The notes beneath the pieces were generated by a model. That model ran no database searches and was not told the DNA's origin. It was given only the letters and a program-made list of their open reading frames with translations. Below are positions 3,001 to 60,448 of a DNA stretch of 64,000 nt, piece by piece. Position numbers and translations under genes: made by a program. The DNA is from a virus (taxonomy: Duplodnaviria; Heunggongvirae; Uroviricota; Caudoviricetes): positions 33,090 to 97,089 of IMG/VR virus record IMGVR_UViG_3300028534_000003; one strand, 5' to 3'. Position 1 is the stretch's first letter. Each line of letters starts with the position of its first letter.

Positions 3001-5113
3001 GATGTATGATGAGTTGGTAGAGATAGGTAAAGTTAACGGTAAAGACTACTTCAATGGCAAACTAAGAACTGCAAGTGGAATGATAGAAGGCGGTAGCAAA
3101 GGATACACGTCAGTGTACAAGGCTAAAGAAGTTGCACTAGATGCTGATGGTAATCAGAAGAGAGAGATGGGATTACTAAGTGAGATGTCAAGTGACAATC
3201 CACTACTAGCTACAGTACAAGACATGCCAAACTCAACATCACTGCTACCAGTAATGACACATACAGCTGATGCATACCAACTGTTCGAAGGATTGAAAGC
3301 ATTCATAGGTGACAGTAAGCATGGAGTAATGACAGTGCATGATGCATACTACGGATACGTACGAGACTTAATGAAAGCTCAAGAAGCATACAATAAAGCA
3401 GCAGTAACACTAGCAACTAAGTTCGACATGGTTGAGGTGATGATAGATGCAATGAGACGAACAGCTAATGACATGCTAACAGATAAAGAAGGAAAAACAG
3501 TTAACGAGATTAAAGCACTAGAAAGTGCTGCAAATAGCTTAATTGAGTTAGCAGATAAGAAAGCCAAAGAGAATGCTGATAGGATGACGAAGAAGGAACA
3601 AGCACTAAAGAAAGCCAGAGTAAAACTACTAGGTGTTAGTAAAGCTGACACAGCAACTGGAGATGAAGTTAAGATACTAAGTGGGTTGAAGACAAGCAAT
3701 AGTGATAAAGAGAAGGTCGAAGATAAAAGTGAGCATAAGAGCAGAAGAGAGACAGCTAAAGAGTGGTTAAATACTACGATGTTCGATACAGAGGCTACGC
3801 TACATGGAGTTGAAGAAGGCAGTGGTGCGACAGTACATCAGATTGGATACATGACTGCTGGTGGTAAGAGTGGTACAATATTCGTAGGTGATACAATAAC
3901 AGATCCAGCAGAGTACTACGGACCAAATGAAGATGCAGAGTCAGCTAAGGCTAATGGATTGATGACATACGAAGCGTACCTAGAGCAACGAGAAGATCAA
4001 AAGATAATGACGATTGATGAGGCTAAGGCTAAGTTACTAGAGTTAGGTAAAGATGGGTTAACTGGATTCAATAACAAGCACTACGATGGTAGAATGCTTA
4101 ATGAACTGTTCAATAATGATGCAGAGATAGCTGAGTTAATGGAGAATAGTAATGATGTTGCAATTATGCTATTAAAAGAAGGTGGTAGCTACGAAGGTAA
4201 GCAAGTTGATTACGCAATAGTAGCTGGAGTTGATACAAGAGGAGCTCACAAGGCTGAAGACGATGCTAAGATGCTACAAGGTGTGCTGAAAGCAGTTAGT
4301 AATGGAATAATAGAAGATAATGATAACATCAAAGAGAAAGCAATTAAAGCTGCATTCAATAGACTAATTAGTGGTGGAGACTTGAGCAGATACATACACG
4401 AAATAGGACAACTGAATGGTGAGTTGGTTAAAGGGCTAGAAGAAAATCAAAGCTTATCAGATGCAGAAATGGTGTGGTTCGATAAGATTGATGAGTTAGG
4501 ACTTAGTGACGAGTTAGTTGAACAGATAGATGGTGCTAGTGCATTCACAGTTGATGGTAAAGTATACATTAGCAAACATGCTGCAGTTGATAATGGTAGC
4601 ATGTTGGATGTGATTAACCATGAGTTAGTACATACAGTGGTAGATAAATACGTACGAGCTAATAGTGATGCAGCTGAAGTTAAATACATGCAGAGAGTAC
4701 TGGATAGATTAAGTAACAAAGAGATTGATAGTACTAGCAGGTTAGGATACATAGTAGAGATGTACAAGCAAGATAAAGTACAAGGTGTGCTAGAACTGTT
4801 AGCAGTGTACAATGGTGAAGGCAAGGATGAGTTGGTTAATCAGATTGATAATGAGTTGAATCCAGGGATAGCGTCAAAGCTGTACAGTATGCTAGTTAGT
4901 GTAGTTAATCAAGCAATAGAATGGCTAAATGGTAAGAGCTACGATGAAGCTATTAGTGAGCTAGGTGATGAGATAGATAGTGTGGGATTAGCTAGAGCAC
5001 TAGAGATAGCAACAAGACAAGCAGTTGAACTGCAGAAGACAAAGAGAAACGTAAAAGTTGATAGTAAGGTTACAGACGCTATAATAGCTAAGATAAAAGA
5101 GAAAGGTTGTTAA
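2..5113 (+). CDS. Virion-encapsidated giant RNA polymerase (N4 vRNAP-like), 5'-truncated by the window edge. The frame is open from nt 2; the GTG at 74 in the ORF track is not the true start.
   Basis: T7-type RNAP motifs in the translation: motif A VEMDASASGVFITMM, motif B REMAKPVVMTWFYSAG (R..K..MT..Y..G), motif C TVHDAYYG. Size is over 1700 aa. It is the last gene of the + strand block next to the replication module, as in N4-like phages. There is also an HELVH (HExxH) motif near the C-terminus. Confidence 0.7.
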   Translation, partial: KVVAEERASKAEAEIKETIRAKGNVYGEDNTDEGAIGEIKKRVSNDEEFYSELEKDKQDRVSKLFEVENGRIVAAKPGTTAKEIEEVMEWANEYGKELEGSQAAKEAVEELTGPTVKMMLTEAKTAEVEANGVNEKVAEELADKVVNKDTAKLDEILNSNADDKEAKVESYLNKLLYNEDGTRLNGVNDAVEKAVRRKVTEYVSKFNNDGIDVMEDANAEVKSELKAKTRPSKKNVKNKVRHAEWVSSEALTEVMNNGLNPDDIRFHTDSTKDRTTVINKLDKNASSKTGVGKVLKEVGSKIEAVTANYDSDKVNEVFKDKPNKDELNRMALIAINTINGATATDTEQRARMVNDGTSPIELNENEYWASHEGIVTQAGKDWYTSLGIKVEGSKEYVLREYRKAGELMLDILTKAGIAEVSENEMLIPISDNMVTADGNRIGVKANGTVNTGGVATGTVEDKLSGAKKLAKVERGVRLTDSNNAIDENSVDTVKTVIPYRSEMGDAVKRLVKLVMPANREKPGHEKYNGEMKIADGITPTDDNIETVDTLEDRPLTIQTNKIPLMMKLKEMRDNSSTGLGGLVRKNKWLAELMGMENTKSELLSASEVGINNTKLQIMNDMLDILDEFVEEVDGEWVAKPMYFEYQIDVNNRISLVNTILNFQHDSKLSRFMLTSTEKMEIGDATSDDRVVQAKAVIEDAGIAKTAKDYEILVDALVNGTMDTGNKEADVLLDHIYKMYKLMETKSPEYIAKMLMSQTKPDAVLGKLNKKIFKAMNVVEEIGKMIDSKGDSYTSEYMVEMDASASGVFITMMNILGRNPDVIKRLLTQLNVGFDGKEVDRETLMDAYKLLENKVLQAIDEDTIVIGSELDSEVKTNEIEELLKELGEAGIDTREMAKPVVMTWFYSAGDTSIVSNLVGETIQSIIRAATSNDSKNKDAALKHISRILGKEVDAKYVREIKARSKDHKKLVKEYSKIGEKYVEQLGNAFPEVTDYKAEMAEMYDELVEIGKVNGKDYFNGKLRTASGMIEGGSKGYTSVYKAKEVALDADGNQKREMGLLSEMSSDNPLLATVQDMPNSTSLLPVMTHTADAYQLFEGLKAFIGDSKHGVMTVHDAYYGYVRDLMKAQEAYNKAAVTLATKFDMVEVMIDAMRRTANDMLTDKEGKTVNEIKALESAANSLIELADKKAKENADRMTKKEQALKKARVKLLGVSKADTATGDEVKILSGLKTSNSDKEKVEDKSEHKSRRETAKEWLNTTMFDTEATLHGVEEGSGATVHQIGYMTAGGKSGTIFVGDTITDPAEYYGPNEDAESAKANGLMTYEAYLEQREDQKIMTIDEAKAKLLELGKDGLTGFNNKHYDGRMLNELFNNDAEIAELMENSNDVAIMLLKEGGSYEGKQVDYAIVAGVDTRGAHKAEDDAKMLQGVLKAVSNGIIEDNDNIKEKAIKAAFNRLISGGDLSRYIHEIGQLNGELVKGLEENQSLSDAEMVWFDKIDELGLSDELVEQIDGASAFTVDGKVYISKHAAVDNGSMLDVINHELVHTVVDKYVRANSDAAEVKYMQRVLDRLSNKEIDSTSRLGYIVEMYKQDKVQGVLELLAVYNGEGKDELVNQIDNELNPGIASKLYSMLVSVVNQAIEWLNGKSYDEAISELGDEIDSVGLARALEIATRQAVELQKTKRNVKVDSKVTDAIIAKIKEKGC

Positions 5114-8013
5114 TGAACTGTGTACAAGAATTAAGAGACGAAATGGTAAAAGCTGTGTTGGATAAGAATCCATATACAGCTAATCCATACAGATCAGTGA
5201 TGGCATCATTAGATGGCAAACTAACTGAAGATGAGTTACAAGAAGTACTGAATACAATTGGTAATGAGTTACTATGGACTGGTGATAGAATAGTTGACCA
5301 AGATGGTAATGAAGTAGTAGTTGAGGTTAGAGATGGTAAAGTTAGTAAGTTCGGAGGAGTGTTCACTGAGAAGTCAATGGAAATGAACAAGTACGCTAGT
5401 TACATGCTGATAGGTGCAGGTAATAGGTTAGAAGAGCTGTTCGGACCAAAGATAGCTAAATGGCATGAGAGAGCCATGGAACGAAGTAAAGTGTACAGTA
5501 GAACTACTGAGCTAATAAAGACTGGATTAAGTGATTCAAAGACATACAAGAGCTTAAAGGCATCACTGTTCCTAACTGATGATATCGATAGAGAGAAGCT
5601 AAGTGAATGGACTACAATGGCTGAGACAATAGCAAGAAGAACATATGAGTTGCTAGATAGAGAAATGCCTAAGCTGGAAGCTAAGATTAATAATATGGAA
5701 TTAAGTGAAGCTGAGAAAGAAGACATTGGAAGATTGTTTGGTGATACAGGGTTCGGAGTGCTTAATGATATACCAGGATTGCTAGAGAAGATAGAGAATG
5801 GTGAAGACTTACAAGAGTTGATAGATGGATTAAAGCTAACTGATGTAGAGAAATCATACGCAAGACAGCTAAAAAGATTCTATGAAGATAGATTAGTAAA
5901 TGCTGAAAACATACAAAATGATATGGGTGATAGTAAAGTTGGTGCCGCAGTTGCCATGCAAATGATGATGAGTAATGATGGTAAGCTATTGAAGCTAATG
6001 AGAAAGCTAATGAAGAAGTATCCAAAAGAGTACTTAGAGCTAAGAGGATTAGCTGCTAGTAATAGGGCACTAGTTGAGGTTATAAATAGAAATAGGAGCG
6101 GTACAGTGTTTGGTGATGGATCAGGAGTGGTGTATAATGGTTACAATGGTAATAACATAATGGATGTATACGAACGGGTACAAGAGTTCAGGCCAGTTAC
6201 ACTAGAAGATATGCGTAAGAAAGAGTACCAACACAGCTCATGGCGAGTAATACGAGAACCAAAGAAAGGTCAGTTAGGGGTAATAGCTAGAAATGCGACT
6301 AACTCATACATGGAAGGATTGGGGCTGAATAATGATAGATTCCTCAATGGTGTAATAGTTAGTAATGAGTTGGTTAATAAAATGACTGATAAGATGAGTA
6401 AGAAAGATAAAGAGAAGTGGTTAGTTAGTAATAACATAGTTATGGATAGAGATAATGGATTCATACGATACACAGTTAAATTGAATAACGATGAATTCAC
6501 CAAAGCTGGTGGAGTAAAGAATGCTGCTCAGATGCTATACAGAACATACGTACACAATCAAGGATTGGTTGAGACAGATACAGTAAGGAAGATGGTAGCA
6601 GATTCAATGACATACAACAATGATGAATTAGCTAAGATAGAAACAATGCTAGAGTTCAACGAACAGAAAGGTGTAAAAAAGAAATACATCAAACCATTCA
6701 TCAACACAACAATGCCGTATAAGTTGATGAAGAAGAGGTATCCAAGAGTAGCTAAGATGTTCGAGCCAGCTAATGGAGTTACTAAGTATGGTGATATGGA
6801 TAAGAAGTTACGATATGTACGAATTGATATGAGTGATATGGTAGTTGGATACAATCAAGAGTTACTGTTCAAAGACTCACAACCAGGATTACAAGCTGCA
6901 GAAATGCTATACAAGCAGATGGTACAATTACTGAAGATCAAGTTAGCAGTTAATAACCCAAAGAAGTTATTGATGGATTCAGTGGCAAATACAGGTGTAC
7001 TATTATCGGTTGATGTGCCAATAATGGACATAGTGAAAGGCTACAAAGAAGGACCAGGTAGACTGCAAGAGATAAGTAAGCTAGAAGGCGATTTAGTTGG
7101 ATTGAAGTTAGAGTTAGCAATGAATCAGAATAGTGCGATTAAGACAGCTAAGATACAAGAGAAGATCAACAAGATAACTGAAGAACTAAATGAATACATA
7201 GAGTTGAAGTACGGATTCATACAGTCAATGGGTACAAGTATGATGATAAAAGAATTCGATACAGTTAGTGGGTTGCAGTTGAGTATAGATAAAGCAATTG
7301 AATACATGGTTAAAGACAAAGAAGGTAATCCAACAGAGATACATAAAGCAGTTGTATGGTGGATGAATGCAGGATTCAGTATAGAAGATATAATAGATGT
7401 AGTTACAAAGAGAGCTAAAGATAAGAACAGTGGATTCACAAAAGAATTAATTGATATGGGTAATACATTACGAAGTAGTAAGGTTAAAGGCCATGAAGAT
7501 ACAGTTAAGTACATAGGGCAAATAATAGGAGGACCAAATAGTGAAGCCACTAGACAAGGTGGTAGAGTAATGGTTGGAATGGATGCCATAATGAAGAGAA
7601 TACTAACAGAGTTCTTCAGAGACAATGAAATTAAGAGATACGAGAAAGAGATTGGTAGGAGAGTTAATGAGAAAGAATATGCTAAGATAGAGCTAAAGGC
7701 TGCTACACAAGCGATGGATATGGGAATAGATTATAGATTGAACTTACCAGAGCAGATTAATAAGGCAAGTAACTATGGTGTACTTATGTTCCCGTCATTC
7801 TGGATGAGAATACAACCAGTAATATACAGATTAATCAAGTACAATCCAATCAACGTACTAAGTGGTTATGCAATAGCATGGATGCTAGGATTGAATAACG
7901 GTAGTATAGTTGATTCGAGTATACCTATTAAAATGACTGCAGAAGGGTTAGTACACCCATTACAGGATGTACTAACAACTGAAACATTTATACTTGGTGC
8001 ATCAGCACTATAA
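5113..8013 (+). CDS. Large hypothetical protein (about 966 aa) directly downstream of the vRNAP, possibly virion-associated or ejected. The ATG at 5113 overlaps the vRNAP stop (TAATG).
   Basis: Long uninterrupted ORF that is translationally coupled to the vRNAP gene. The translation is charged and K/E-rich. I recognise no catalytic motif. Confidence 0.55.
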   Translation: MNCVQELRDEMVKAVLDKNPYTANPYRSVMASLDGKLTEDELQEVLNTIGNELLWTGDRIVDQDGNEVVVEVRDGKVSKFGGVFTEKSMEMNKYASYMLIGAGNRLEELFGPKIAKWHERAMERSKVYSRTTELIKTGLSDSKTYKSLKASLFLTDDIDREKLSEWTTMAETIARRTYELLDREMPKLEAKINNMELSEAEKEDIGRLFGDTGFGVLNDIPGLLEKIENGEDLQELIDGLKLTDVEKSYARQLKRFYEDRLVNAENIQNDMGDSKVGAAVAMQMMMSNDGKLLKLMRKLMKKYPKEYLELRGLAASNRALVEVINRNRSGTVFGDGSGVVYNGYNGNNIMDVYERVQEFRPVTLEDMRKKEYQHSSWRVIREPKKGQLGVIARNATNSYMEGLGLNNDRFLNGVIVSNELVNKMTDKMSKKDKEKWLVSNNIVMDRDNGFIRYTVKLNNDEFTKAGGVKNAAQMLYRTYVHNQGLVETDTVRKMVADSMTYNNDELAKIETMLEFNEQKGVKKKYIKPFINTTMPYKLMKKRYPRVAKMFEPANGVTKYGDMDKKLRYVRIDMSDMVVGYNQELLFKDSQPGLQAAEMLYKQMVQLLKIKLAVNNPKKLLMDSVANTGVLLSVDVPIMDIVKGYKEGPGRLQEISKLEGDLVGLKLELAMNQNSAIKTAKIQEKINKITEELNEYIELKYGFIQSMGTSMMIKEFDTVSGLQLSIDKAIEYMVKDKEGNPTEIHKAVVWWMNAGFSIEDIIDVVTKRAKDKNSGFTKELIDMGNTLRSSKVKGHEDTVKYIGQIIGGPNSEATRQGGRVMVGMDAIMKRILTEFFRDNEIKRYEKEIGRRVNEKEYAKIELKAATQAMDMGIDYRLNLPEQINKASNYGVLMFPSFWMRIQPVIYRLIKYNPINVLSGYAIAWMLGLNNGSIVDSSIPIKMTAEGLVHPLQDVLTTETFILGASAL

Positions 8014-22640: not shown

Positions 22641-22782
22641 ACGTCGTTAATGTGTGCCCGTCAGTTAATGACTGCTGTATATTTCTATACAGACTAGACT
22701 ATATCTTTATCGCTTTGCAATTTAAGCATTGTTTTATTAAAATTATGGTACTATATAAATATATTATGCTAAAGGATAATAA

Positions 22783-23604
22783 ATGGAAGAAATATGGGTA
22801 CCAATTAAAGGTAGAGAAGAGTACTATGAAGTATCAAACCTAGGTAGAGTTAGGACATTATTTGGTAGAGTAAACAAATTAAATGAACCAAAAATAATGA
22901 TAGGTAGAGCATATACTGCTAGTCAAACTAAATATAATCAAGTTAAGTTAAGTAATGGTGGAAAACCAGAGTACTCCTTAGTACATCGATTAGTAGCTGA
23001 AGCTTTCATACCAAATCCAGAAAATAAACCATTTGTTAATCATATAGATAATAATGGATTAAATAATAATCATACTAATTTAGAATGGTGCACACAGTCA
23101 GAAAACCTAAAGCATGCTCAAAAGCAAGGTAGGTTGTTTGAAGCCCAATCTAAAGGCGGTAAAGCTCAACGAGATTTAGTAAGAACTAACGCTAAAGAAA
23201 TAGCTAGTAATCTGGTTGGCACACAGTATTATAAATGGACTGTTACTAATTATTTAGGGATAAAGCACCATAACAGAGAATACATAGAATGTACATGTGA
23301 GTGTGGTGCTAAAGTTGATATGTATTATATAACTATTATTAACGGTAAAGCTAGTCATAGTTGTAAGCAATGCGCTAAAACAGATGCTAAGGATAAATAC
23401 ATCAAAGAAATACTTAATGATATAAAAGATACTTCAGTAAATAATTGGGTATTTACAGGCAATGCTGTAGGCTATAATAAAAATTTAACAACTACAAAAC
23501 AATTAAAGTTAGAGGCTGTATGTAGTTGTTGTGGTAATGTTGACAGTCTTCCGTATGCCAAATTACCTAAAGTAAAACAATGTTTAAATTGCAAAGTACG
23601 ATAA
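22783..23604 (+). CDS. Free-standing HNH homing endonuclease (NUMOD4 + HNH_3 type)
   Basis: N-terminal WVPIKGREEYYEVSNLGRVRT (NUMOD4), then VHRLVAEAFIPNPENKPFVNHIDNNGLNNNHTNLEW (HNH_3). It is the lone + strand gene inside the minus-strand block. Confidence 0.7.
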   Translation: MEEIWVPIKGREEYYEVSNLGRVRTLFGRVNKLNEPKIMIGRAYTASQTKYNQVKLSNGGKPEYSLVHRLVAEAFIPNPENKPFVNHIDNNGLNNNHTNLEWCTQSENLKHAQKQGRLFEAQSKGGKAQRDLVRTNAKEIASNLVGTQYYKWTVTNYLGIKHHNREYIECTCECGAKVDMYYITIINGKASHSCKQCAKTDAKDKYIKEILNDIKDTSVNNWVFTGNAVGYNKNLTTTKQLKLEAVCSCCGNVDSLPYAKLPKVKQCLNCKVR

Positions 23605-23908
23605 CTCCCGTTTCGGATCACTTGATCCTACGTGCTATGCACTAGTCGTTGAACGTTACACATACTGCCGTTGCAGGTTAGTGTCTTCGCTGCTGATTGT
23701 CCGTTAGTGATATAGACTTCACTTTATAAGTATTTCTACTTATATTAGCGCTATATCCTCTTGGGAGTTCCCAGCAATTAGAGAGTTACAAAGTCGTATA
23801 TTACTATACGACAGGGCTAGTAATATATACATCATAATAATTATTTAATATGCTATCATTTGTTTATTTTCATCACATATTAAATAAATATTACTAGGTA
23901 TATACATA

Positions 23909-24871: not shown

Positions 24872-26221
24872 AATTAGACGCTCAGTTGGTTTAACGAATT
24901 CATCCTTACGAAGTGGGAATAAGCCAGCTTCGTTAAGTCTACGATTGATTGATTTAACTGCAATGTCGTAATCCTGTTGTGTAAATTCTAATGTTGTTAT
25001 TGAATTAGATGCCTCATACCCGTATGATGACGATCCAGTTGTACTTGTTGTTGTGTTAGTCCATACTATTATTGAGCCATCACTTAAAACATGGCCTCGT
25101 ATTGTATGGCCTTGCCCATATAAATCATTGTCTTCAGTAATGGTCGCAACACCATTACCCGTTCTCTTATGAACTGCTATATATTTCTATACAGATGAGA
25201 CTATATCATCACCCTCAGCATTATCTGTTAGGGGCAAACCGCTTCCATCACCATTAGCTTGTGATGTACTCCCTTCCGGGATAGTCGTTACACTTTCTCT
25301 ATTTAAAAATTTATCATTATATACACGCTTTACAGCGTATGGTACTCGTTTAATTATGGCTTTAGCCACAGCTTTTGTTATACCATACTTGTCTACTATA
25401 TTATGTACTTTATAATCATTATCATAGTAATCTATTAAAATACTTAGTATAGTATCATCAGGTACTGAATACTTACGTGATTTTCTTGTAATATGCTCAT
25501 CACTATTACTAAATGAATAGTGAGGTTTATTTAGGTAGTCAATAGCTTTTTGTAGTGTCTCTACAGAATCTTTTAATTGACCTAAGGCTGTGTTACATGT
25601 ATGACAAAGTAATCCTCTAACATCCCCTGAAGTATGACAATGGTCAATTACTAGTGGCATTGTTAGAGATTTAGCAGAGTTTGTCATATATCCTGTATAT
25701 CCACATATACTACATTTACCATCTTGTTCAATATACATATCTATATAGTCATCTAGTGACATATTATAATTACGTTGAAGCCAAGCATTAGCTAGGCCTT
25801 TACTAGCGCATTTATCTGAACAATAGTGTTCAGATGGTGCTTTTGGTGTAAATGTATTATTACATATTCTACATGCCTTATCTTTAAAGTACCCTTGTGG
25901 ATACTTAGAAGCAGAGGCTGTTTGATCTTTCTTAATTCTTAAATGCTTACCTGTACTAGGTAAAGGTACTTCATGTCTTTCCATAATATTATTCCTTAAT
26001 AGTTTTATGGAGTGTAACATGTAATTTATTAAATAGAGCTTAGCTCGGGATTGTCTTTAACTTAATAATAAGATGTCCCCCGAATTCAATTTGTTTACTT
26101 ATACACTATTTCTAGTGTAACCGGTCATTTATACATTAATACACTTAGTACACTTACTACTATCATTTGTCTATTCTCATCATAGTAATTGTATTAGTAT
26201 ATTGGAACAATGTAATGTTCA
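24869..26221 (-). mobile_element. Putative group I intron interrupting the DNA polymerase gene, carrying a homing endonuclease ORF
   Basis: The polymerase reading frame stops (TGA) straight after FFFG and resumes with ETIYG 1.35 kb downstream. The upstream exon ends in U and the insert ends in G. The insert has GC-richer structured flanks around an HNH ORF. Confidence 0.5.
25187..26020 (-). CDS. Intron-encoded HNH endonuclease of the Endonuclease VII (T4 gp49-like) type
   Basis: LVIDHCHTSGDVRGLLCHTCNTALG signature plus Zn-finger-like CRICN..C..C at the N-terminus. Confidence 0.65.
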   Translation of the reverse strand: MLHSIKLLRNNIMERHEVPLPSTGKHLRIKKDQTASASKYPQGYFKDKACRICNNTFTPKAPSEHYCSDKCASKGLANAWLQRNYNMSLDDYIDMYIEQDGKCSICGYTGYMTNSAKSLTMPLVIDHCHTSGDVRGLLCHTCNTALGQLKDSVETLQKAIDYLNKPHYSFSNSDEHITRKSRKYSVPDDTILSILIDYYDNDYKVHNIVDKYGITKAVAKAIIKRVPYAVKRVYNDKFLNRESVTTIPEGSTSQANGDGSGLPLTDNAEGDDIVSSV

Positions 26222-35042: not shown

Positions 35043-35254
35043 TTATGTTCCTCTATATATTGTTTAACTAATTTAGGGTTTATCTTATCAAATTTATTAC
35101 AATATTGTTGTACTGGACAGTGATTATAACAGTCACATAAATCATAATCATTACATTTAATATCTACATATTCAGATTCATTATTATAAACAAGATTAAA
35201 ATGTTCAGATATAATTGATAGTGTTTTAAGTTCATCGTTAGTTAATATATCCAT
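35039..35254 (-). CDS. Cys-rich small protein
   Basis: CNDYDLCDCYNHCPVQQYC cluster. Confidence 0.35.
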   Translation of the reverse strand: MDILTNDELKTLSIISEHFNLVYNNESEYVDIKCNDYDLCDCYNHCPVQQYCNKFDKINPKLVKQYIEEHK

Positions 35255-35892
35255 CAGCTATCAAACCCTACAGCTAGTATAACTTCGTCATACTTATTTT
35301 CATCATATGGAGCATATAATAACATCCATTGTTTTAATTTTTCAATGATTGTTACGAATGGTTTCTCTTCCCATGAAGTTCTAATATATAACTCTTTAGG
35401 TATTTTACCTTTAGATGAATTATTATAGTATTCCAGTTCAAAATTACCTTTATCATATTGATAATCATCTAATACTTGAACACCTTTACCTGTTATATCA
35501 CCACAATAATCTATATCTTCAGGTAAGCTTTTATTGTCTTTTATAAGCTTATACTCATGTTCAGTAAAGACTCCATATCTTACTACCTGTACTAAATGTT
35601 TATCAGTTTGTAAGATATCTTTTAATGTTACATGTGTTTTACTATGATCACCAAATATCCAAGTGTCTTTAGCTTCAAATGATGATAATACTTTTGGTAT
35701 GCCTTTATTTTCTGCGATTGGTGTTACTGGAGTATGTCTAGCACATCCTGCAAATCCATAACCATTTCTAACACCTGCTAAAATAGCGAAGAAATCATAG
35801 TTTCTTCCACTAAATACTGGTGGTAATTCAACAAACTGGTATTCATCTTTCCATGACTTATAGAATAATCCACCGTGTATATCTGTTCCCAT
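35254..35892 (-). CDS. Hypothetical protein (212 aa)
   Basis: ORF with a THVTL (H-x-T-x-like) motif. No secure assignment. Confidence 0.4.
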   Translation of the reverse strand: MGTDIHGGLFYKSWKDEYQFVELPPVFSGRNYDFFAILAGVRNGYGFAGCARHTPVTPIAENKGIPKVLSSFEAKDTWIFGDHSKTHVTLKDILQTDKHLVQVVRYGVFTEHEYKLIKDNKSLPEDIDYCGDITGKGVQVLDDYQYDKGNFELEYYNNSSKGKIPKELYIRTSWEEKPFVTIIEKLKQWMLLYAPYDENKYDEVILAVGFDS

Positions 35893-35966
35893 ATATACTC
35901 CTTTATTTAGTATTTAGTCAACTAAGCTTATTTAATATATGTTTAGTTGACTAAATAGTTTAATAG

Positions 35967-36065
35967 TGGTACTGGTTGGATTCGAACCAACGATTCCAGG
36001 CGATCTATGAGCTTATAGATGCTTAAGGTCTGCCTACACTAGACCAACTTGTGCGTACAGTACCA
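35967..36065 (-). tRNA. tRNA-like gene, 99 nt, with a ~23-nt insertion in the anticodon-arm region
   Basis: On the minus strand the acceptor is GGTACTG/CAGTACC+A, the D-arm is GCAC-AAGTTGGTCTA-GTGT, and the T-arm is GTTGG-TTCGAAT-CCAAC. Between them, a TAGGC/GCCTG stem closes a 30-nt loop that holds an ATCTAT/ATAGAT hairpin. Confidence 0.5.
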
Positions 36066-36449
36066 AATGCGAGGATTGATTAGATCCTCTGACTTTAGTG
36101 ACCTTTATATTCAGTCTTATGGTAAGCTAGGAGTCACCTAGTACCTCCAATGATTCCCGCATTGGTACAGGCTCAGTAATCAGCTGAGTTATTGGTATTT
36201 ATAGTGTTTTTAGCACTGTGGTGTAGTAGCTGGGAGTTGCACCCAGATTGTTCCCGGGGATTCTACTAATTGAATTACCACTACAATAAGTAATTAAGAT
36301 GGGCGACTAATCCCCTGTAGCTACGACTGTAAACAGTTCAGTAGTCATCTGAATTGAGTAACTAGTAACAATAAGCATACTGATACCTGTAGGAGATTAC
36401 TATAGTAATGTTTAATGGCACACTACTTCAGTCATTATAAGCCAATAGG

Positions 36450-37349
36450 TTATTGTTTAGCGGATGTGTTTAATAATACTGGCATACTACCATTCATTAC
36501 CGATTTAGGTAATTGTCCATCCCATTTATTTGCTTCTGCTAACTTAACCTCAAGAGCTTTTTCCTGTAGTTCTAATTTACGTAATGTGATAAGTTCAGGA
36601 GTAATACCCTTAGCAGTCATAGCGTTGTAGTCTCTAATTCTCTTAGCTTCAAGCATACGAATATCATAGTCAGCTTCGGCTAGTTTTTTCTCACCTGCTT
36701 TTTTAGTTAATGCAATTTGTACATTAGCTTGTTCCTGTTCAATTTCCATTCGTCTTTTCTTAGCTGCTTCGATTGCATTAGTTACTATGTCTGGATATTT
36801 AATCTCTCCTATAGTAACATCGGAGATATCGATTGGTAATCCTTGTAACTTAGGTGCTAATGCTTGATACAATTCCTCAGTGATACGAGCATAGTTAGTG
36901 TTAACTTCATCTACGTTATATTTAGACATTACAGCTCTAGCAGTGTTAAGAATTACCATCTTACCATATACGTAATACACTTCTTGAGTAGTAATAATGT
37001 TATCATCCAACTTCATATCGTTGAATATAGCGTTCTGTCTTTTTCTATCGGATGTAACTCTACCTCTGAATACTACTGAGAACCTAAGAGTTAATTTATC
37101 TCTCAGTAAGACCTTTACAGGCTCTACAAACTTTTGTGTAGTGGTTTCAATTTGGATCATTCGTTCATGCATTGATGTTCTGGTAAAAGGACCATTGTCA
37201 ATATTTACGATGCCTGGGGGATATACCTCAGGTTGGAATCCGGTAGGCCCTAATACCTTACCTACGTGTCCTTGATCTACTTGAACATTACATCCGGTAA
37301 ATACAATTGTTGCTGTAATTGCAGCTATAATACTTAATATACGTTTCAT
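36450..37349 (-). CDS. SPFH/band-7 (prohibitin/HflKC-like) domain lipoprotein
   Basis: Lipobox (LSIIAAITATIVFTGC), then an SPFH-like core and a coiled-coil tail (EQEQANVQIALTKKAGEKKLAEADYDIRMLEAKR). Confidence 0.5.
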   Translation of the reverse strand: MKRILSIIAAITATIVFTGCNVQVDQGHVGKVLGPTGFQPEVYPPGIVNIDNGPFTRTSMHERMIQIETTTQKFVEPVKVLLRDKLTLRFSVVFRGRVTSDRKRQNAIFNDMKLDDNIITTQEVYYVYGKMVILNTARAVMSKYNVDEVNTNYARITEELYQALAPKLQGLPIDISDVTIGEIKYPDIVTNAIEAAKKRRMEIEQEQANVQIALTKKAGEKKLAEADYDIRMLEAKRIRDYNAMTAKGITPELITLRKLELQEKALEVKLAEANKWDGQLPKSVMNGSMPVLLNTSAKQ

Positions 37350-45506: not shown

Positions 45507-46598
45507 TTATTTACCAGATTTCAGTAAGTATTTATCACTAATACATTTAAAACTAATAGATCCATCACATGCTTTATATACACGTCCTTCAGACCAAACA
45601 GAGGATGATAGAGATTTACTAGTTACTCTTTCCTGAAACTGCTCAAATGATGTTATTTCCTTGAATATCTCTACTTCAGGATTAACTACTGGCACGTACT
45701 GTGCTTTAGGTAAGTAGTAGCTAACAAACCATCTAGCCTCTGTTGGTGTAAGGTATTTTTGATCAGTAATGTCAAATACTGAAAATATGTAGAATTCAAC
45801 TTCAGATACTTTCTCATAGTTACCTTGAATATTTGGTGCTAATACCTCACCCTGTACAGCAAATCCAGTAGGTAAGTCAATATGTAGATTATATTTATCC
45901 GATGCTGTCCAAAAATTAGATGGTTTATCACCAAGTTTAGGCTGCTTAAGTTCAAGATTACGAGAGCATACACCAAAGTGAGTTATGTTATATATATTGA
46001 ATAATTTATTTAATACTTGTTTATACCACGGTAATTTTATTTCAATTTTATAAGCTGTCATTGATGAACCATCAAGTTTAAGTGTCTCTTCAAAGAATAT
46101 TTCTTTATGAGTCTCAAATAGATGCGGTAAGTTTTGAATACGTTCCTGATCAGTTTTAGGGATGAATGCTGGGAAATTACCTGCAGGTTTTCCAGTTACT
46201 GAATTGCCTTTACTTTGCTGTTGCGCTATGTCAATGTCGTATTTGATTACTCCAAGCAGTTCAGTTAGATTATCCCCAATATTAAGGGTTACAGAATTAA
46301 GCTCCTCAAACAGGCTAATCGGTAATAACAATCCCTGAGATATTGCTCCTGCTAACTTCATAGTACGAATACGATATCCTTGTTTACCTTGATGGGTAGT
46401 AGATTTACCTAAGAATGAGTATTTGTCAGATTTAGGTATGAATGAATCTATTTCAAAAAATACTCCAATGGATCCTTCAGTAAATTCCCCTTTTTTAACT
46501 ATACATGACCAACCATCAATTACAGCTAACTCAATTCTATCCTTGTTCGGAATTGGTAGTAATTTATTTACTTTACGAATTGTTACTAATTTTCTCAT
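45507..46598 (-). CDS. RNA ligase-like nucleotidyltransferase (Rnl with N-terminal OB-like domain)
   Basis: Motif I KLDGSS (EETLKLDGSSMTAY) and an N-terminal RKV...DR.EL..IDGW..VKKGEF OB-like module. The phage already has a separate DNA ligase. Confidence 0.5.
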   Translation of the reverse strand: MRKLVTIRKVNKLLPIPNKDRIELAVIDGWSCIVKKGEFTEGSIGVFFEIDSFIPKSDKYSFLGKSTTHQGKQGYRIRTMKLAGAISQGLLLPISLFEELNSVTLNIGDNLTELLGVIKYDIDIAQQQSKGNSVTGKPAGNFPAFIPKTDQERIQNLPHLFETHKEIFFEETLKLDGSSMTAYKIEIKLPWYKQVLNKLFNIYNITHFGVCSRNLELKQPKLGDKPSNFWTASDKYNLHIDLPTGFAVQGEVLAPNIQGNYEKVSEVEFYIFSVFDITDQKYLTPTEARWFVSYYLPKAQYVPVVNPEVEIFKEITSFEQFQERVTSKSLSSSVWSEGRVYKACDGSISFKCISDKYLLKSGK

Positions 46599-47301: not shown

Positions 47302-49521
47302 CTAAAAAATGATTCGTTGTAGTTCCTCAATATTGGTTAATACATTGATCGAATAATCGGAAGTAGTACCAATAGTAATATCAGCTTCATCAGGTGATGT
47401 AGTGATAGATGACTTAGGAATAGTTAAGGCTAATACTGATGCTAAGCTAGTATGCTGATTACGGTTGTTAATAGCTTCTAGGTTAGATTGTAATAACGAG
47501 TTAGCATTATCATAATTAGTTGATGGTGTATTAATACTTAATGATGTCATAGTACGATCAACTAGATCAATATAGAACGGTAGATAATTCTTAGATGTAG
47601 CTGGTAATGATACAGCATAGTCTTGTTTGGCAAGATCAATAGTTATAGTGCTACTAGGTTTAATTCGTTGTGCAGGTGTAATAACAGATAAGAAGATATG
47701 AGTATCATATTTATCAAAAGTTTTACCCCTATACATATTGACCATATTAAATAATGAAGTAAATCCAGCATCTACTGCTTTATCAATATCGATATCGATG
47801 AATTCAGCTGAATAGATATCAGTATCACAAGAAGTAATATCACCAGATGATACAGCTATTAGTTGGCTATTATGACGAAGTTCAGGCGAACCATAGTAGC
47901 AATTAGCTAACTCAGGTCCAGACATCTTAGGTCGAATGAAGATTGATGATAAATCAATATCACATGAACCATGTCCGATGTCCTTCCAACAGATACCAAG
48001 ACGAATAATTGATCCGTCAGGTAATGGTAAGGTTGAGTTAGGTGGAATAAATCCACCACTAAGAGCTATTTCATCAGAATTAGCTCCAGAGTACTGAACA
48101 GCAATTGATTGAAGTTCAGGAGCTATGTAGACTTTGCCAAGGTTATGGTTGGCAGATTGTTTAGTCTGCATAATATAACGAGATACTGTGCTAATCACAC
48201 TGCTAACTAAAGCTGTATCAAATGCTGGTATCGGAGTAATATAGTGAATTAATTGCCCACGTACTTCACGACTGTGGATAGGTTCATAGTGAACTGGGTT
48301 ATGAAGTTCCTCTAGTAGTTGAATAGCAGTTTTAATTGCAGGTTTAGCTGATGCTAGAATTGTCGGTAATTGATTACGAAGCTGATCAGATGCATCAGAT
48401 TGAACTACAGCTGGTTTAGTATCAGAAGTAGTTGCTATTGAAGTTCCAGTAGTGTACTTACAATACATGATGATGTTACGAAGCAATAATCCAGGTTTCT
48501 CTGTTAAGATTTCAAATGCAAGTGAATAATCATAAGATTGTAATGCACGTTGATAACGAGAGTTAAATGTCCATGAACGATCAGTTGAATAAAGTATAGT
48601 TAAAATCAGCTTAGTTACAGGATAACGATGGTTAAATTTAGCAGATGAGCACCAATGTGAGTGATGGAATAATCGCTTCCAGAATTGTTCATATACTAAT
48701 AGTTGCTCAGTTATTGGTCTTACACTCTGATTGTTAAACCAGTTAAGAATGAACTTCTTCATACGAGTTGGTAAATGGAATTGGACTGATTTCAACATGT
48801 CACTAGTTATTTGGCCATTGAAATCGATGTCATGTGGTTTGGTTCCAACTGATAAGATAAATCGTAATAGCTCATCAATTGACGAGATTGTTGGTAAGAT
48901 ACCTTGCTTATACTGCGATAATTGAACTAATGATTTAGTAGACTTTACATAGTAAGTTGGGTTGAGACTAGACAACTCATGCCAATCAGCAGATTGAATG
49001 ATCTTCTCTTGATTAAGTCGAAGTGGTGCTTTAGATTCAAGTAATGATAGCATATAGGCTTCATAGGCTGGTCTGTCAAATAAAGTAATATGCTTAGTAG
49101 TTGATTTATCATAGGCTGGGATTAATGGTGCTGTATCGAGTTTATACTGCGATAGAATCGCTGCTGGAGATAAGTTAGTTACTGATTCAAAAGTTGATTC
49201 CCAATCATATGTGATAGAATATTGAGCAAAGATAGCTAAGTAATCATCATAAGTATATGATTCAAGATCAAGCTGAGAACCGAATGAATTACGAAATACA
49301 GTAGCTTGTTTAGTGGTTGACGAAATACAGTTCAAGATTGAGTTAGAAGCTGATGTATAGTCAGCTTGTAGTAGTACCTCAGGATTGGTGATGATATATC
49401 CACTGTGGGCTAATTTAACAAGTAGTTCAATCTTAGCTGGGATATCCTCGGGTGAAGTTGGTAGAATTGGAATTGAACTAGTTAGTCCATAGATTAGTGA
49501 TTTATGAGTATATTGACTCAT
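47302..49521 (-). CDS. Large hypothetical protein (739 aa)
   Basis: Long ORF with a C-terminal Cys/His and acidic-repeat region (GICWKDIGHGSCDIDLSS...DIDIDK). Confidence 0.5.
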   Translation of the reverse strand: MSQYTHKSLIYGLTSSIPILPTSPEDIPAKIELLVKLAHSGYIITNPEVLLQADYTSASNSILNCISSTTKQATVFRNSFGSQLDLESYTYDDYLAIFAQYSITYDWESTFESVTNLSPAAILSQYKLDTAPLIPAYDKSTTKHITLFDRPAYEAYMLSLLESKAPLRLNQEKIIQSADWHELSSLNPTYYVKSTKSLVQLSQYKQGILPTISSIDELLRFILSVGTKPHDIDFNGQITSDMLKSVQFHLPTRMKKFILNWFNNQSVRPITEQLLVYEQFWKRLFHHSHWCSSAKFNHRYPVTKLILTILYSTDRSWTFNSRYQRALQSYDYSLAFEILTEKPGLLLRNIIMYCKYTTGTSIATTSDTKPAVVQSDASDQLRNQLPTILASAKPAIKTAIQLLEELHNPVHYEPIHSREVRGQLIHYITPIPAFDTALVSSVISTVSRYIMQTKQSANHNLGKVYIAPELQSIAVQYSGANSDEIALSGGFIPPNSTLPLPDGSIIRLGICWKDIGHGSCDIDLSSIFIRPKMSGPELANCYYGSPELRHNSQLIAVSSGDITSCDTDIYSAEFIDIDIDKAVDAGFTSLFNMVNMYRGKTFDKYDTHIFLSVITPAQRIKPSSTITIDLAKQDYAVSLPATSKNYLPFYIDLVDRTMTSLSINTPSTNYDNANSLLQSNLEAINNRNQHTSLASVLALTIPKSSITTSPDEADITIGTTSDYSINVLTNIEELQRIIF

Positions 49522-49720
49522 TGTAGATCCTTTATGGTGAGTTATTCACTTACTGCTGACAAGTGTGTGATAACAGTAGTTTATTAAATCCGATATTGTT
49601 AGTAACTGATATCAGGACTTGTCAATAGTAAATGAATAATCCAAGTATGTCTAAAGTGTAGTTATGTCAAATTAAAAGTTTGGTAAGTAACACAATAGAG
49701 GACTTGGATGGTATGTGTTT

Positions 49721-49876
49721 CCACATAGTACTACATAAGTGTGCGTAAGTAGTAAAATAACGTGCTCTACCACTGAGCTACTACTCCACTAATGTCGGAG
49801 TAGGCTGGATTTGAACCAGCGACCACGTGCTCCAAATGCAAGTAACTAATTACAGGACTTATGCAGTACTATGTGG
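49721..49876 (-). ncRNA. Circularly permuted tRNA-like element flanked by a 20-bp inverted repeat
   Basis: The minus strand reads ...GTGGTC-GCTGG-TTCAAAT-CCAGC-CTACTCC-G-(ACATTAGT)-GGAGTAG-TA-GCTC-AGTGGTA-GAGC-A.... The flanks are CCACATAGTACTGCATAAGT and ACTTATGTAGTACTATGTGG. Confidence 0.4.
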
Positions 49877-49958
49877 AATATGCGGAGCTAAGCGCTCCGA
49901 CTGATTAGGTGAATAAGTTACCGTCCCATCTAAGGTAATTCAAGGCATACTTGAGTAA

Positions 49959-59351: not shown

Positions 59352-59524
59352 TGTGGCTCCTTTATAGTTAAATTGTTAATGCCATTGAGGCACACCTTCA
59401 CACGATAAACTAGCTAATGCTAGCTTACTGGTGCGAACTTGTCCAGATCAGGATAATCAGGATTAAAATCAGGCATTGGTGCTCCTTGATTGGCGTATAA
59501 ATGAATCAATCACTTATCATAGAA

Positions 59525-59542
59525 CACCGGCCCCGTCCGGTG
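59525..59542. promoter_or_regulatory. GC-rich hairpin CACCGG-CCCCGT-CCGGTG in the divergent intergenic region
   Basis: 6-bp perfect stem in an otherwise AT-rich context. It could be a terminator or a structured promoter element. Confidence 0.3.
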
Positions 59543-59759
59543 CAGAAACACGGTGACTAACTTAGTTGAGAAACTAGGTTCGAAATAGGTTGAACTATGT
59601 GGGTTGAATGAATCAAAACTGCCAGCATTACCCGGTACAGAATGAAATCAACACCACACAATAATACCCTCCGAAGAGGGCACTATGTATGGTAAATTAA
59701 TTGCTATATTATATATAGAAAGTACAATCCGTTAACGATGGTAGCTAGACTATAAAAAC

Positions 59760-59815
59760 TTTACCCGTTAACAGGTAAAATTCCAAATTAATTTACCCGT
59801 TAACAGGTAAAATTC
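59760..59815. promoter_or_regulatory. Two direct copies of a 24-bp operator-like imperfect palindrome TTTACCCGTTAACAGGTAAAATTC
   Basis: Exact 24-bp repeat at 59760-59783 and 59792-59815. Each copy has internal dyad symmetry (TTTACC.GTTAAC.GGTAAA). They lie about 160 bp upstream of the + strand gene at 59978. Confidence 0.5.
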
Positions 59816-59977
59816 TTGTTAAGCTATGATAAAGTTAATAGATGTTATACTACATTCATGATAGTTTAAGTGAGTGTCTTACTCCGAAAGTCTACACACT
59901 TTGTGTAGGCATTCACTTAGATTATTAGCGTGATTAAGGAGTAAGACACCACTAATCATAAATCTAAATTCACACTC

Positions 59978-60448
59978 TTGAAAGATAACATGGATAATGA
60001 AATACCATTAAACATATCACTCGGTAAGGATGAATCAATCCAAGTTAAACGAGTATATGATAACAAGCCACCATTCTCTATGGTCGGCACTAAGCAAACC
60101 AAGAAAGGATCAACAATGTTAAATAGTGAACATCACTTAGATATACTAGAAGTAATGGAAAATATATCACCAAATGCTATATACGTACTAAGACTACTAC
60201 GAGATAGTAGAGAGATTAGTGATTATGAAACACATAGCATAGCTCCAATGATCACTAGTAGACGTAAAGAACTGTCTAAAAGTGACCAACGTAGATGGGA
60301 TAAAGGATTAGCTGTACTAATAGCTAATAAGCTTATAGCTAGCTATATAGGTAAATATATGATTAATCCATTCCTGATTATACCAAACAACTTCGAGGAG
60401 CATGAAAAGCTATGGAACAAACTATCTGATGATATAGTTACTAGCTAG
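59978..60448 (+). CDS. Putative winged-helix transcriptional regulator
   Basis: 156 aa with AIYVLRLLRDSREISDYE, matching a MarR/wHTH recognition-helix pattern. It is divergent from the early gene block and has the operator repeats upstream. Confidence 0.35.
   Translation: MKDNMDNEIPLNISLGKDESIQVKRVYDNKPPFSMVGTKQTKKGSTMLNSEHHLDILEVMENISPNAIYVLRLLRDSREISDYETHSIAPMITSRRKELSKSDQRRWDKGLAVLIANKLIASYIGKYMINPFLIIPNNFEEHEKLWNKLSDDIVTS

Follow-up and report, generated by a model that had tools for sequence, protein, structure and literature searches.

Two tRNA-like genes without a usable anticodon loop in a structured non-coding gap of an uncultured phage

The DNA analysed here, called the window below, is a stretch of 64,000 nucleotides (nt) from a tailed phage of the class Caudoviricetes (IMG/VR record IMGVR_UViG_3300028534_000003, positions 33,090 to 97,089). 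We focused on a 557-nt gap between two genes (35893-36449), the minus strand of which carries two genes resembling transfer RNAs (tRNAs), M1 and M2. Because M1 has a 30-nt insert in place of an anticodon loop and M2 has no anticodon arm, neither can decode. The phage has a separate set of canonical tRNAs, and the same design is found in related phages. We tentatively propose that the products of the gap are stable non-coding RNAs that mimic tRNAs, are probably released by tRNA-processing enzymes and may be tied to the SPFH and RNA-ligase repair genes of this phage. The elements at the centre of the argument are the following.

35967-36064, minus strand: M1, a tRNA-like gene of 98 nt (97 nt plus the discriminator A35967), seen by reading the sequence and by a combined T-arm and acceptor scan
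36003-36020, minus strand: hairpin ATCTAT-AAGCTC-ATAGAT within the M1 insert (6 base pairs (bp), 6-nt loop), base-pair probability 0.89
36219-36284, minus strand: M2, a 66-nt tRNA-like gene without an anticodon arm, seen by the same scan and by the covariance model R1

The acceptor stem of M1 is formed by GGTACTG (36064-36058) and CAGTACC (35974-35968), and the T-arm next to it, GTTGG-TTCGAAT-CCAAC (35991-35975), fits the consensus. An earlier reading of this sequence, referred to here as the original prediction, had set the acceptor as TGGTACT/AGTACCA, which is the same helix shifted by one base; together the two registers give eight contiguous pairs, including T36065-A35967. Because the T-stem must abut the 3' strand of the acceptor, the proper register is GGTACTG...CAGTACC (36064-35968), in which A35967 is the discriminator and the CCA is not encoded. 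The variable loop is GAATC (35996-35992), and the D-region (36056-36036) contains a GG at 36046-36045. At the position of the anticodon arm, a stem made of TAGGC (36036-36032) and GCCTG (36001-35997) encloses a 30-nt loop (36031-36002), in which 11 unpaired nucleotides, AGACCTTAAGC (36031-36021), precede the inner hairpin. All of these parts as originally described, namely the acceptor stem, the GG of the D-region, the T-arm, the TAGGC/GCCTG stem, the 30-nt loop and its hairpin, are thus present on the minus strand. We also considered M1 as a type II (Ser/Leu-like) tRNA in which the hairpin would be a long variable arm, and rejected this because the anticodon stem would then pair at three of five positions, compared with five of five for TAGGC/GCCTG.

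The original prediction had likened the M1 insert to an archaeal or eukaryal-type tRNA micro-intron. ARAGORN called no tRNA gene in the whole window with or without its intron search, and the intron-aware mode (-i) that had been suggested as a check returned nothing from the gap; likewise, an Rfam search gave no tRNA at the gathering scores. We then removed single contiguous pieces of 1 to 44 nt from M1 and ran the resulting 2207 variants through ARAGORN. Only three were called; all three had lost bases of the D-region and all gave an undetermined four-base anticodon, and no deletion inside the loop restored a tRNA call. Replacing the 30-nt loop with canonical 7-nt loops, with or without an added nucleotide 26, did not produce a call either. 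Inspection of the insert showed no bulge-helix-bulge motif, the actual arrangement being an asymmetric internal loop of 11 nt and 1 nt followed by the 6-bp hairpin. Furthermore, excising any one contiguous piece from M1 never yields a 7-nt loop that combines U33 with a purine at position 37; the sole U33 candidate, AUAGAUC, has U37. A tRNA-splicing endonuclease was not seen among the ~40 phage open reading frames (ORFs) that were scanned with Pfam, NCBIfam and PHROGs. Because the searches, the deletions, the loop swaps and the inspection of excisions all fail, and a bulge-helix-bulge is missing, M1 is a tRNA-like RNA whose acceptor/T-arm half fits the consensus and whose D/anticodon half is non-canonical, and not a tRNA with a removable intron. 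The statement that the insert is far too short for a group I intron was borne out: it measures 30 nt, and the Intron_gpI model has no match in the gap, the same search having given three matches elsewhere in the window. An engineered extension of the anticodon arm, also suggested originally, is unsupported: the contig comes from an environmental phage, and similar elements are found again in environmental phages related to it.

M1 had been taken as the only clear tRNA-like gene of the region. However, the gap contains a second one, M2 (36284-36219), with the layout GTAGTGG-TA-ATTC-AATTAGTA-GAAT-[13-nt linker CCCCGGGAACAAT]-CTGGG-TGCAACT-CCCAG-CTACTAC-A-CCA. It thus consists of an acceptor stem, the U8-A9 spacer, a D-arm, a T-arm, a discriminator and an encoded CCA, with the 13-nt linker replacing the anticodon arm, and its helices are intact (7-bp acceptor, 4-bp D-stem and 5-bp T-stem). 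The sequence of M2 had been noticed before, as a multi-branch structure written on the other strand as TAGTAG...CTGGG-AGTTGCA-CCCAG...CTACTA; the sequence does exist, but what it forms is this tRNA-like gene.

Since energy-based folding prefers other pairings, we sought independent support for M2 with R1, a covariance model built from five tRNA or tRNA-like genes of other phages whose anticodon arms had been deleted beforehand. R1 was searched against the whole window with filters off, and its E-values are to be read as rough. It matched M2 from end to end with 25.4 bits (E 1.2e-4), the second-best match in the window after the D-arm half of a locus at 49.8 kb. In the gap, nothing scored beyond M2 and the T-arm of M1, which was matched locally with 17.2 bits (E 0.027). 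With a normal anticodon arm grafted into its linker, M2 was called as a tRNA by ARAGORN under default settings. Its body is therefore that of a good tRNA in which specifically the anticodon arm is missing, and it is more tRNA-like than the body of M1. The Rfam Tymo_tRNA-like model also gave a score over M2, at the noise level of 15.9 bits.

The scan that retrieved both elements looks for a T-arm and then for an adjacent 7-nt strand that can pair with an upstream 7-mer as an acceptor. It found two matches in the 557-nt gap, both on the minus strand, against an expectation of about 1.15 for the two strands of the whole window together (128 kb). A perfect GTTCRANYC T-arm occurs at only two non-coding sites of the window, one of which is M1.

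Canonical tRNAs of this phage lie elsewhere. A locus from another assembly of the same phage (L007), identical to the window over an overlap of 11,283 nt, contains six tRNA genes called by ARAGORN at 4934-5426, namely Ser-GCT, Trp-CCA, Asn-GTT, Gln-TTG, Pro-TGG and His-GTG; R1 matched four sites in this locus. Relative to the window, the cluster is on the opposite strand, 3.6-4.1 kb past coordinate 64000. M1, M2 and a YrlA-like RNA at 49.8 kb are therefore extra to the normal decoding set.

We fetched ~21 distinct loci from uncultured phages that share the SPFH gene next to the gap. Three types of relative are informative for the elements discussed here.

L042, SPFH protein 61% identical: canonical tRNA-Asn(GTT) and tRNA-Ser(GCT) directly downstream of the SPFH gene
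L033, SPFH protein 56% identical: four tRNA-like genes, at most 2 kb from the SPFH gene
L027/L043, SPFH protein 72% identical, the closest relative: a non-coding region of 1.6 kb, 4-5 kb upstream, that holds four or more tRNA-like elements, without an ARAGORN call for any

The four elements of L033 include one with a 6-nt anticodon loop, one with a 16-nt loop, one with a 54-nt anticodon region and one that encloses a whole tRNA-like gene. This last element (1735-1881, identical in L038 and L056) consists of two tRNA-like genes, one of which sits in the anticodon loop of the other. Its outer part has a perfect acceptor, D-arm and T-arm and a 5-bp anticodon stem, TCATC/GATGA, which closes an 82-nt loop consisting of CA, a 74-nt tRNA-like gene (with a 6-nt anticodon loop and the ending ACCA) and TTACAC. 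In the closest relative (L027 1-1000, corresponding to L043 1341-2992), element L027-A scores 44.6 bits on the Rfam tRNA model and has a 5-bp stem, CTTTC/GAGAG, that closes a 42-nt insert with a hairpin of its own; it is of the same design as M1. Another element of this region, L027-C, has a 5-nt anticodon loop. Across the relatives, the acceptor and T stems of these elements are perfect and most have a canonical GCTC...GAGC D-arm. Duplicate copies of each relative are identical among themselves. We also observed that the word AC[GA]CAACC follows several of the L027/L043 elements.

The original prediction mentioned a second aberrant tRNA-like locus at 49.8 kb. This locus is real and matches the YrlA family of Y RNAs.

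49719-49878, minus strand: YrlA-type RNA (Rfam YrlA RF02553, 37.1 bits, E 1.9e-6, below the gathering score of 69)

Within a 22-bp stem (49878-49857 with 49740-49719) lies a tRNA-like module (49828-49757) that is circularly permuted: its T-arm comes first, followed by the acceptor, which a loop closes, and then by the D-arm, so that the T-arm and acceptor 3' strand, GCTGG-TTCAAAT-CCAGC-CTACTCC-G, precede the acceptor 5' strand and D-arm, GGAGTAG-TA-GCTC-AGTGGTA-GAGC. The 437-nt gap around it (49522-49958, minus strand) folds into three tandem long hairpins (z-score -8.9), the first of which is the YrlA-like RNA. The word AAGTCCT-N7-GTTACT tops the 5' strand of each hairpin and occurs nowhere else in the window. 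As a handle for relatives it was rejected, since its 19 IMG/VR matches are all single chance matches inside genes. The T-arm/acceptor pattern of the module was not found in GTDB genomes, and the GNCGAA(N)G motif is absent from both this gap and the one at 35893-36449. No TROVE/Ro60 gene was seen among the scanned ORFs of the window or in the gene table of a 10-kb flank, which together cover all but ~23 kb of the 97-kb genome. We considered the 739-amino-acid (aa) ORF just downstream (47302-49521) as a candidate Ro60 and rejected it, as Pfam and PDB gave no match and a RING-domain family only a weak, partial one. Thus the 49.8-kb locus is a YrlA-like RNA and not a demonstrated member of the family. 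When un-permuted, its module (49757-49835) is identical to tRNA-Asn(GTT) of L042 (3986-4060) at 51 of 61 positions, and this similarity suggests that the Y-like RNA of the window was derived from a phage tRNA gene.

The window phage has an uncultured genome of 97 kb with 35.5% G+C, in which the minus strand holds nearly all genes from 8 kb onward. It is distant from anything cultured: the nearest known relatives of its single-subunit RNA polymerase are only ~23% identical. A DNA search of the gap against 50,697 phage records gave no match. The phage encodes ribonucleotide reductase, ThyX, NAMPT and NMNAT, a split family-A DNA polymerase and an RNA ligase of the DraRnl family. The genes most relevant to the gap are given below.

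36450-37349, minus strand: SPFH/Band-7 gene immediately upstream of the gap (PF01145, E 1.7e-17)
35254-35892, minus strand: 212-aa gene immediately downstream of the gap, without a Pfam family or an assigned function
45507-46598, minus strand: ATP-dependent RNA ligase of the DraRnl (DRB0094) family (PF21189, PF09414; TIGR02306 153.7 bits, cut-off 151.15)

The gap begins 1 nt past the SPFH stop codon and is among the few long structured gaps of a tightly packed genome. Homologues of the SPFH protein with 52-72% identity are common among uncultured phage contigs. The 212-aa protein belongs to a widespread phage family, PHROG 10141, in which the N-terminal MGTDIH and an RNY...VRNG motif are invariant among 196 homologues; its closest homologue is 42% identical and lies in a different gene neighbourhood. 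A confident AlphaFold model (pLDDT 93) gave no match in a PDB fold search. In one relative (L004), the homologue of this gene lies directly 3' of the RNA ligase gene. In the window the ligase gene, which had been noted originally and was confirmed here by PF09414 and by a TIGR02306 score above the curated cut-off, is 9 kb from the SPFH gene and the gap. In the cultured Pseudomonas phage PS24, an SPFH homologue sits two genes upstream of the RNA ligase. PADLOC, run on the proteins near the gap and the 49.8-kb locus, returned nothing meaningful.

Two further observations concern other parts of the window. The group I intron model gives three minus-strand matches, at 23544-23840, 25177-25346 and 22677-22709 (43.5, 33 and 28.2 bits, below the gathering score of 50), close to an ORF with an Endonuclease VII domain (25187-26020) and to the region of the split DNA polymerase. 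They probably represent self-splicing introns that come with homing endonucleases. The 1070 nt of 59352-60421, located downstream of the gene for the RNA polymerase, contain no minus-strand ORF of at least 55 aa and give the strongest folding signal of the window (z-score -12). This stretch holds a tandem repeat of GAATTTTACCTGTTAACGGGTAAA at ~59810-59760 as well as a plus-strand ORF of 156 aa (59978-60448) that may or may not be real.

In the remainder of the gap, the ORFs are all 44 aa or shorter and none has coding support, which agrees with the original description of the remaining 380 nt as free of ORFs, and all of the perfect hairpins listed there exist. On the minus strand they are arranged, together with others, as follows.

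36285-36449, minus strand: 165-nt spacer upstream of M2, without an ORF or an RNA-family match
36427-36404, minus strand: strong hairpin AGTAGTGT/ACATTACT in this spacer
36353-36337, minus strand: hairpin TTCAG-ATGACTA-CTGAA in this spacer
36065-36218, minus strand: 154-nt spacer between M2 and M1, without a match to the tRNA, YrlA or R1 models
36217-36203, minus strand: hairpin AGTG-CTAAAAA-CACT in the 154-nt spacer
36188-36172, minus strand: hairpin CTCAG-CTGATTA-CTGAG in the 154-nt spacer
36165-36147, minus strand: hairpin CCAATG-CGGGAAT-CATTGG in the 154-nt spacer
36145-36121, minus strand: hairpin GGTACTAGG-TGACT-CCTAGCTTACC in the 154-nt spacer
36089-36071, minus strand: hairpin GAGGAT-CTAATCA-ATCCTC in the 154-nt spacer
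35911-35957, minus strand: perfect 15-bp hairpin between M1 and the Shine-Dalgarno sequence of the next gene, base-pair probability 0.98

As a whole, the gap folds moderately better than its shuffles (z-score -3.3 to -4.9). In three hairpins of the M2-M1 spacer (36217-36071), the 7-nt loops CTAAAAA, CTGATTA and CTAATCA resemble anticodon loops in having C32, U33 and A38, a pattern recognised post hoc. A third, YrlA-like permuted module seen by eye in this spacer is supported by no model and was rejected. M1 ends 75 nt ahead of the start codon of the 212-aa gene, whose Shine-Dalgarno sequence is AAAGGAG (35904-35898). Since the 15-bp hairpin that lies in between has no U-tract, it is not a classical intrinsic terminator and may be a processing or stability element. 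Rfam gave only noise on the gap, such as miRNA-like matches to this hairpin. No internal repeats, no window-wide repeats and no direct repeats or iterons of the gap were found, nor was any repeated promoter-like word; TGTTACTAGTT, common to the window and L042, was tried as a phage promoter and rejected as not enriched. Two assemblies of the window phage match the window exactly and the gap has no close homologue, so that its base pairs offer no covariation.

How might such RNAs be made and used? We suggest that the gap would be a minus-strand non-coding transcription unit, or part of an early or middle polycistronic transcript, containing two tRNA-mimic genes. Both M1 and M2 retain a 7-bp acceptor stem stacked on a 5-bp T-arm, which is the part that would be seen by end-processing and CCA-adding enzymes. 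Host RNase P would cut their 5' ends, 3' processing together with CCA addition or repair would set their 3' ends, and stable small RNAs of ~66 and ~98 nt would be released. These could act in trans as tRNA look-alikes, serving as cofactors of RNA-repair genes (the SPFH/Band-7 scaffold, the DraRnl-type ligase and the YrlA-like RNA) or, alternatively, as decoys for host factors that bind or attack tRNAs. The RNA-repair context is suggested because the gap follows the SPFH gene and precedes a gene whose family member adjoins the ligase gene in L004, and because a YrlA-type mimic lies in the same window. Expression, processing, stability and a role in trans are what we infer from this anatomy, and a cofactor or decoy role in phage RNA-repair or anti-tRNA-nuclease biology would in our view be the most likely function. 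The original idea of RNA repair or decoys comes close to this reading.

Several results weigh against this proposal. The D-region of M1 is irregular, with a 13-nt loop and a 4-bp D-stem that competes with the 5-bp anticodon stem for one U, such that there is no nucleotide 26. M1 is weak on tRNA models, its best Rfam match being tRNA-Sec with 17.9 bits (gathering score 47), and energy folding favours other pairings for its interior, the competing helix being GGUCU/AGACC. Thermodynamic folding likewise favours alternatives to the tRNA-like form of M2 (-16.3 versus -14.6 kcal/mol in isolation, and -28 kcal/mol in context), with GUAGCU/AGCUAC and CGCCCA/UGGGUG as the competing helices, and the M2 T-loop, TGCAACT, carries a G at position 55. 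Neither a sigma-70-type promoter nor a terminator was found on the minus strand of the gap. Homologues of the gap are absent from IMG/VR, JGI metagenomes and GTDB genomes as searched with exact or gapped M1 DNA patterns, and nhmmer with the gap against all fetched relatives gave no match. Only 3-4 of the ~21 distinct loci (the window, L027, L033 and L042 types) have genes for tRNAs or tRNA-like RNAs at a distance of no more than 3-5 kb from the SPFH gene. Moreover, the set of elements from the relatives is biased, because the scan demanded perfect acceptor and T stems, though not a D-arm or anticodon stem. The perfection of the acceptor and T stems is thus uninformative on selection; however, the D-stems and the insert-closing stems, which the scan did not demand, are intact in most of these elements.

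The main rival holds that M1 and M2 are tRNA genes in decay. They would go back to an ancestral pair 3' of the SPFH gene, for example Asn and Ser, which would have become redundant beside the other cluster and would now be eroding, with the anticodon arms the first to be lost or disrupted and no present function. We consider this a serious explanation, although clearly less probable than tRNA-mimic RNAs. L042, L032 and L053 keep canonical tRNA-Asn(GTT) and tRNA-Ser(GCT) genes directly 3' of the SPFH gene, and since these occupy the same position, M1 and M2 could be the remains of such a pair. Indeed, M2 is identical to the L042 tRNA-Asn at 46 of 56 aligned bases, including CTACT of the acceptor 3' strand, and the window phage has Asn and Ser genes in its separate cluster. 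The off-consensus M2 T-loop and M1 D-region, and the failure of M1 on tRNA models even with a repaired loop, fit this as well, and pseudo-tRNAs are common in phage tRNA clusters. However, all helices that could be checked are intact (in M1 a 7-8 bp acceptor, a 5-bp T-stem and a 5-bp anticodon stem; in M2 7, 4 and 5 bp), and only the anticodon loop or arm is damaged. In two other phages, independent elements show this combination of unbroken stems and a changed loop again, and there the D and anticodon stems were outside the search criteria. A pseudogene is also not expected to retain an encoded CCA and RNase P determinants, and 557 nt of dead DNA would be unusual in so compact a genome. A rather improbable alternative is that the modules and hairpins act only in cis, as RNase P, RNase Z and RNase III cleavage and stability signals that separate the SPFH and 212-aa mRNAs, the released RNAs having no role of their own; they may in addition control translation of the downstream gene. 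Transfer RNAs punctuate mitochondrial transcripts in this manner, and T7-like phages use a single-subunit RNA polymerase to make long transcripts that are processed. The window phage also has its own single-subunit RNA polymerase, the lack of a sigma-70-type promoter or terminator on the minus strand of the gap is consistent with read-through, and the short distance from M1 to the next start codon is taken up by the 15-bp hairpin without a U-tract and a strong Shine-Dalgarno sequence. Yet punctuation needs neither 557 nt nor two modules, the homologues of either flanking gene mostly adjoin their neighbours with no such gap, and the structured 30-nt insert and the YrlA-type RNA elsewhere would be left unexplained.

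Two explanations appear far weaker. M1 could be a genuine tRNA with an unconventional small intron that is excised by a nuclease, the halves then being resealed by the phage RNA ligase. The intact 5-bp stem at the anticodon position, an insert exactly at the tRNA intron site, the DraRnl-type ligase and the probable group I introns elsewhere in the phage are compatible with this, and in L033 excision of the nested gene by RNase P and 3' processing would, as judged from the expected chemistry, leave a 3'-OH and a 5'-phosphate end for such a ligase to join. However, the missing bulge-helix-bulge, the lack of any excision that gives U33 and purine 37, and the negative outcome of the ARAGORN intron search, loop deletions and grafts, together with the lack of an Rfam intron match in the gap and of a splicing endonuclease among the ORFs scanned, make it very improbable. 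It is almost equally improbable that the resemblance arose by chance, or that the gap is a DNA-level element rich in inverted repeats such as an origin or packaging site. AT-rich sequence does yield many short hairpins, M1 and M2 are weak on curated RNA models, and the folding z-score of the gap is a moderate -3.3, but the independent R1 match to M2, the consensus T-arm of M1 beside an 8-bp helix, the location of all elements on the transcribed strand and the lack of direct repeats or iterons argue otherwise. We thus regard a role in cis only and true splicing as less likely, and chance as unlikely.

Taken further, and as a speculation that we consider improbable, an uncultured marine phage lineage could be using the tRNA body as a chassis and the anticodon loop as a cargo slot, with the products working as cofactors or decoys alongside a Ro60-less YrlA-like RNA, an SPFH scaffold and a ligase. 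The arms would then be kept for RNase P, 3'-processing and CCA enzymes, and the cargo would range from hairpins and longer pieces to a whole tRNA-like RNA, or would be deleted. Cleavage and supply of tRNAs form a main battleground between bacteria and phages, in which the known counters of phages are replacement tRNAs and repair enzymes. If M1 and M2 are functional mimics, anticodon-less tRNA look-alikes would be a third kind of player, as decoys, scaffolds or repair cofactors, and tRNA mimicry of the Y-RNA type would extend to phages without Ro60. If they are merely decaying, the locus shows how phage tRNA genes die, and that tRNA finders miss elements with a conserved body and an altered loop. 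The nested arrangement in L033 furthermore suggests a protein-only route of cutting and rejoining by RNase P, 3' processing and a ligase.

Among known systems, Y RNAs of the YrlA type (RF02553) offer a close comparison. Their tRNA-like modules are substrates of RNase P, the CCA-adding enzyme, TruB and DusA (Chen et al. 2014, PMC4201824); they carry tRNA modifications, RNase P cuts them and CCA can be added, and their genes adjoin Ro60 (PMC4201824). Like M1 and M2, these RNAs have a tRNA-like module without a decoding anticodon, and Y RNAs also occur in phages. The Deinococcus Y RNA Yrn1 has the normal arm order and a 6-nt "anticodon" loop comparable to the M1 hairpin. M1 and M2 differ from YrlA itself in having the normal arm order and free acceptor ends, no long closing stem, no GNCGAA motif and no YrlA match at E-values up to 10.

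Other likenesses concern the anticodon loop. Some phage tRNAs evade the anticodon nucleases of the host through changes in their anticodon loop (van den Berg et al. 2023, PMC10264068), and escape tRNAs of phages are known for PARIS and retron-Eco7 (PMC11464382, PMC11555353). As in M1 and M2, the differences in these tRNAs are concentrated in the anticodon loop, and the setting is one of conflict over tRNA; unlike M1 and M2, they are functional decoders with 7-nt loops. Genes for tRNAs with bulge-helix-bulge or group I introns share with M1 the extra sequence in the anticodon loop of a tRNA-shaped gene, whereas M1, with its 30 nt, has no bulge-helix-bulge, no restorable loop and no match to an intron model.

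In 2016, Burroughs and Aravind reportedly proposed RNA-repair systems with TROVE and SPFH/Band-7 scaffolds, cognate Y RNAs and a "novel tRNA-like molecule". The likeness to the RNA said to be associated with Band-7, for which Rfam has no family, is one of genomic setting, with a tRNA-like RNA beside an SPFH gene and a ligase and a Y-RNA-like RNA in the genome; it is limited by the SPFH adjacency in only 3-4 of ~21 loci and by the distance of 9 kb to the ligase. The species 1 and 2 RNAs of T4 and the small RNAs of T5 are stable RNAs co-transcribed with tRNAs; they have tRNA-like parts, are matured by the tRNA-processing machinery and long had no assigned function. These lie inside a canonical tRNA cluster, whereas ~30 kb separate M1 and M2 from the real cluster, which is on the opposite strand. 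In tmRNA (transfer-messenger RNA) and in tRNA scaffolds, which Ponchon and Dardel are said to have engineered for RNA expression in 2007, the acceptor/T-arm half serves as a stable, processable chassis and another RNA replaces the anticodon arm; the comparison of M1 and M2 with tRNA scaffolds is an analogy only. M1 and M2 are unlike tmRNA in having no tag reading frame and no G3:U70 pair, and ARAGORN found no tmRNA in the window at default settings and only noise-level calls at a lowered threshold. M1 and M2 are best filed as a variant of the known tRNA-mimic RNAs.

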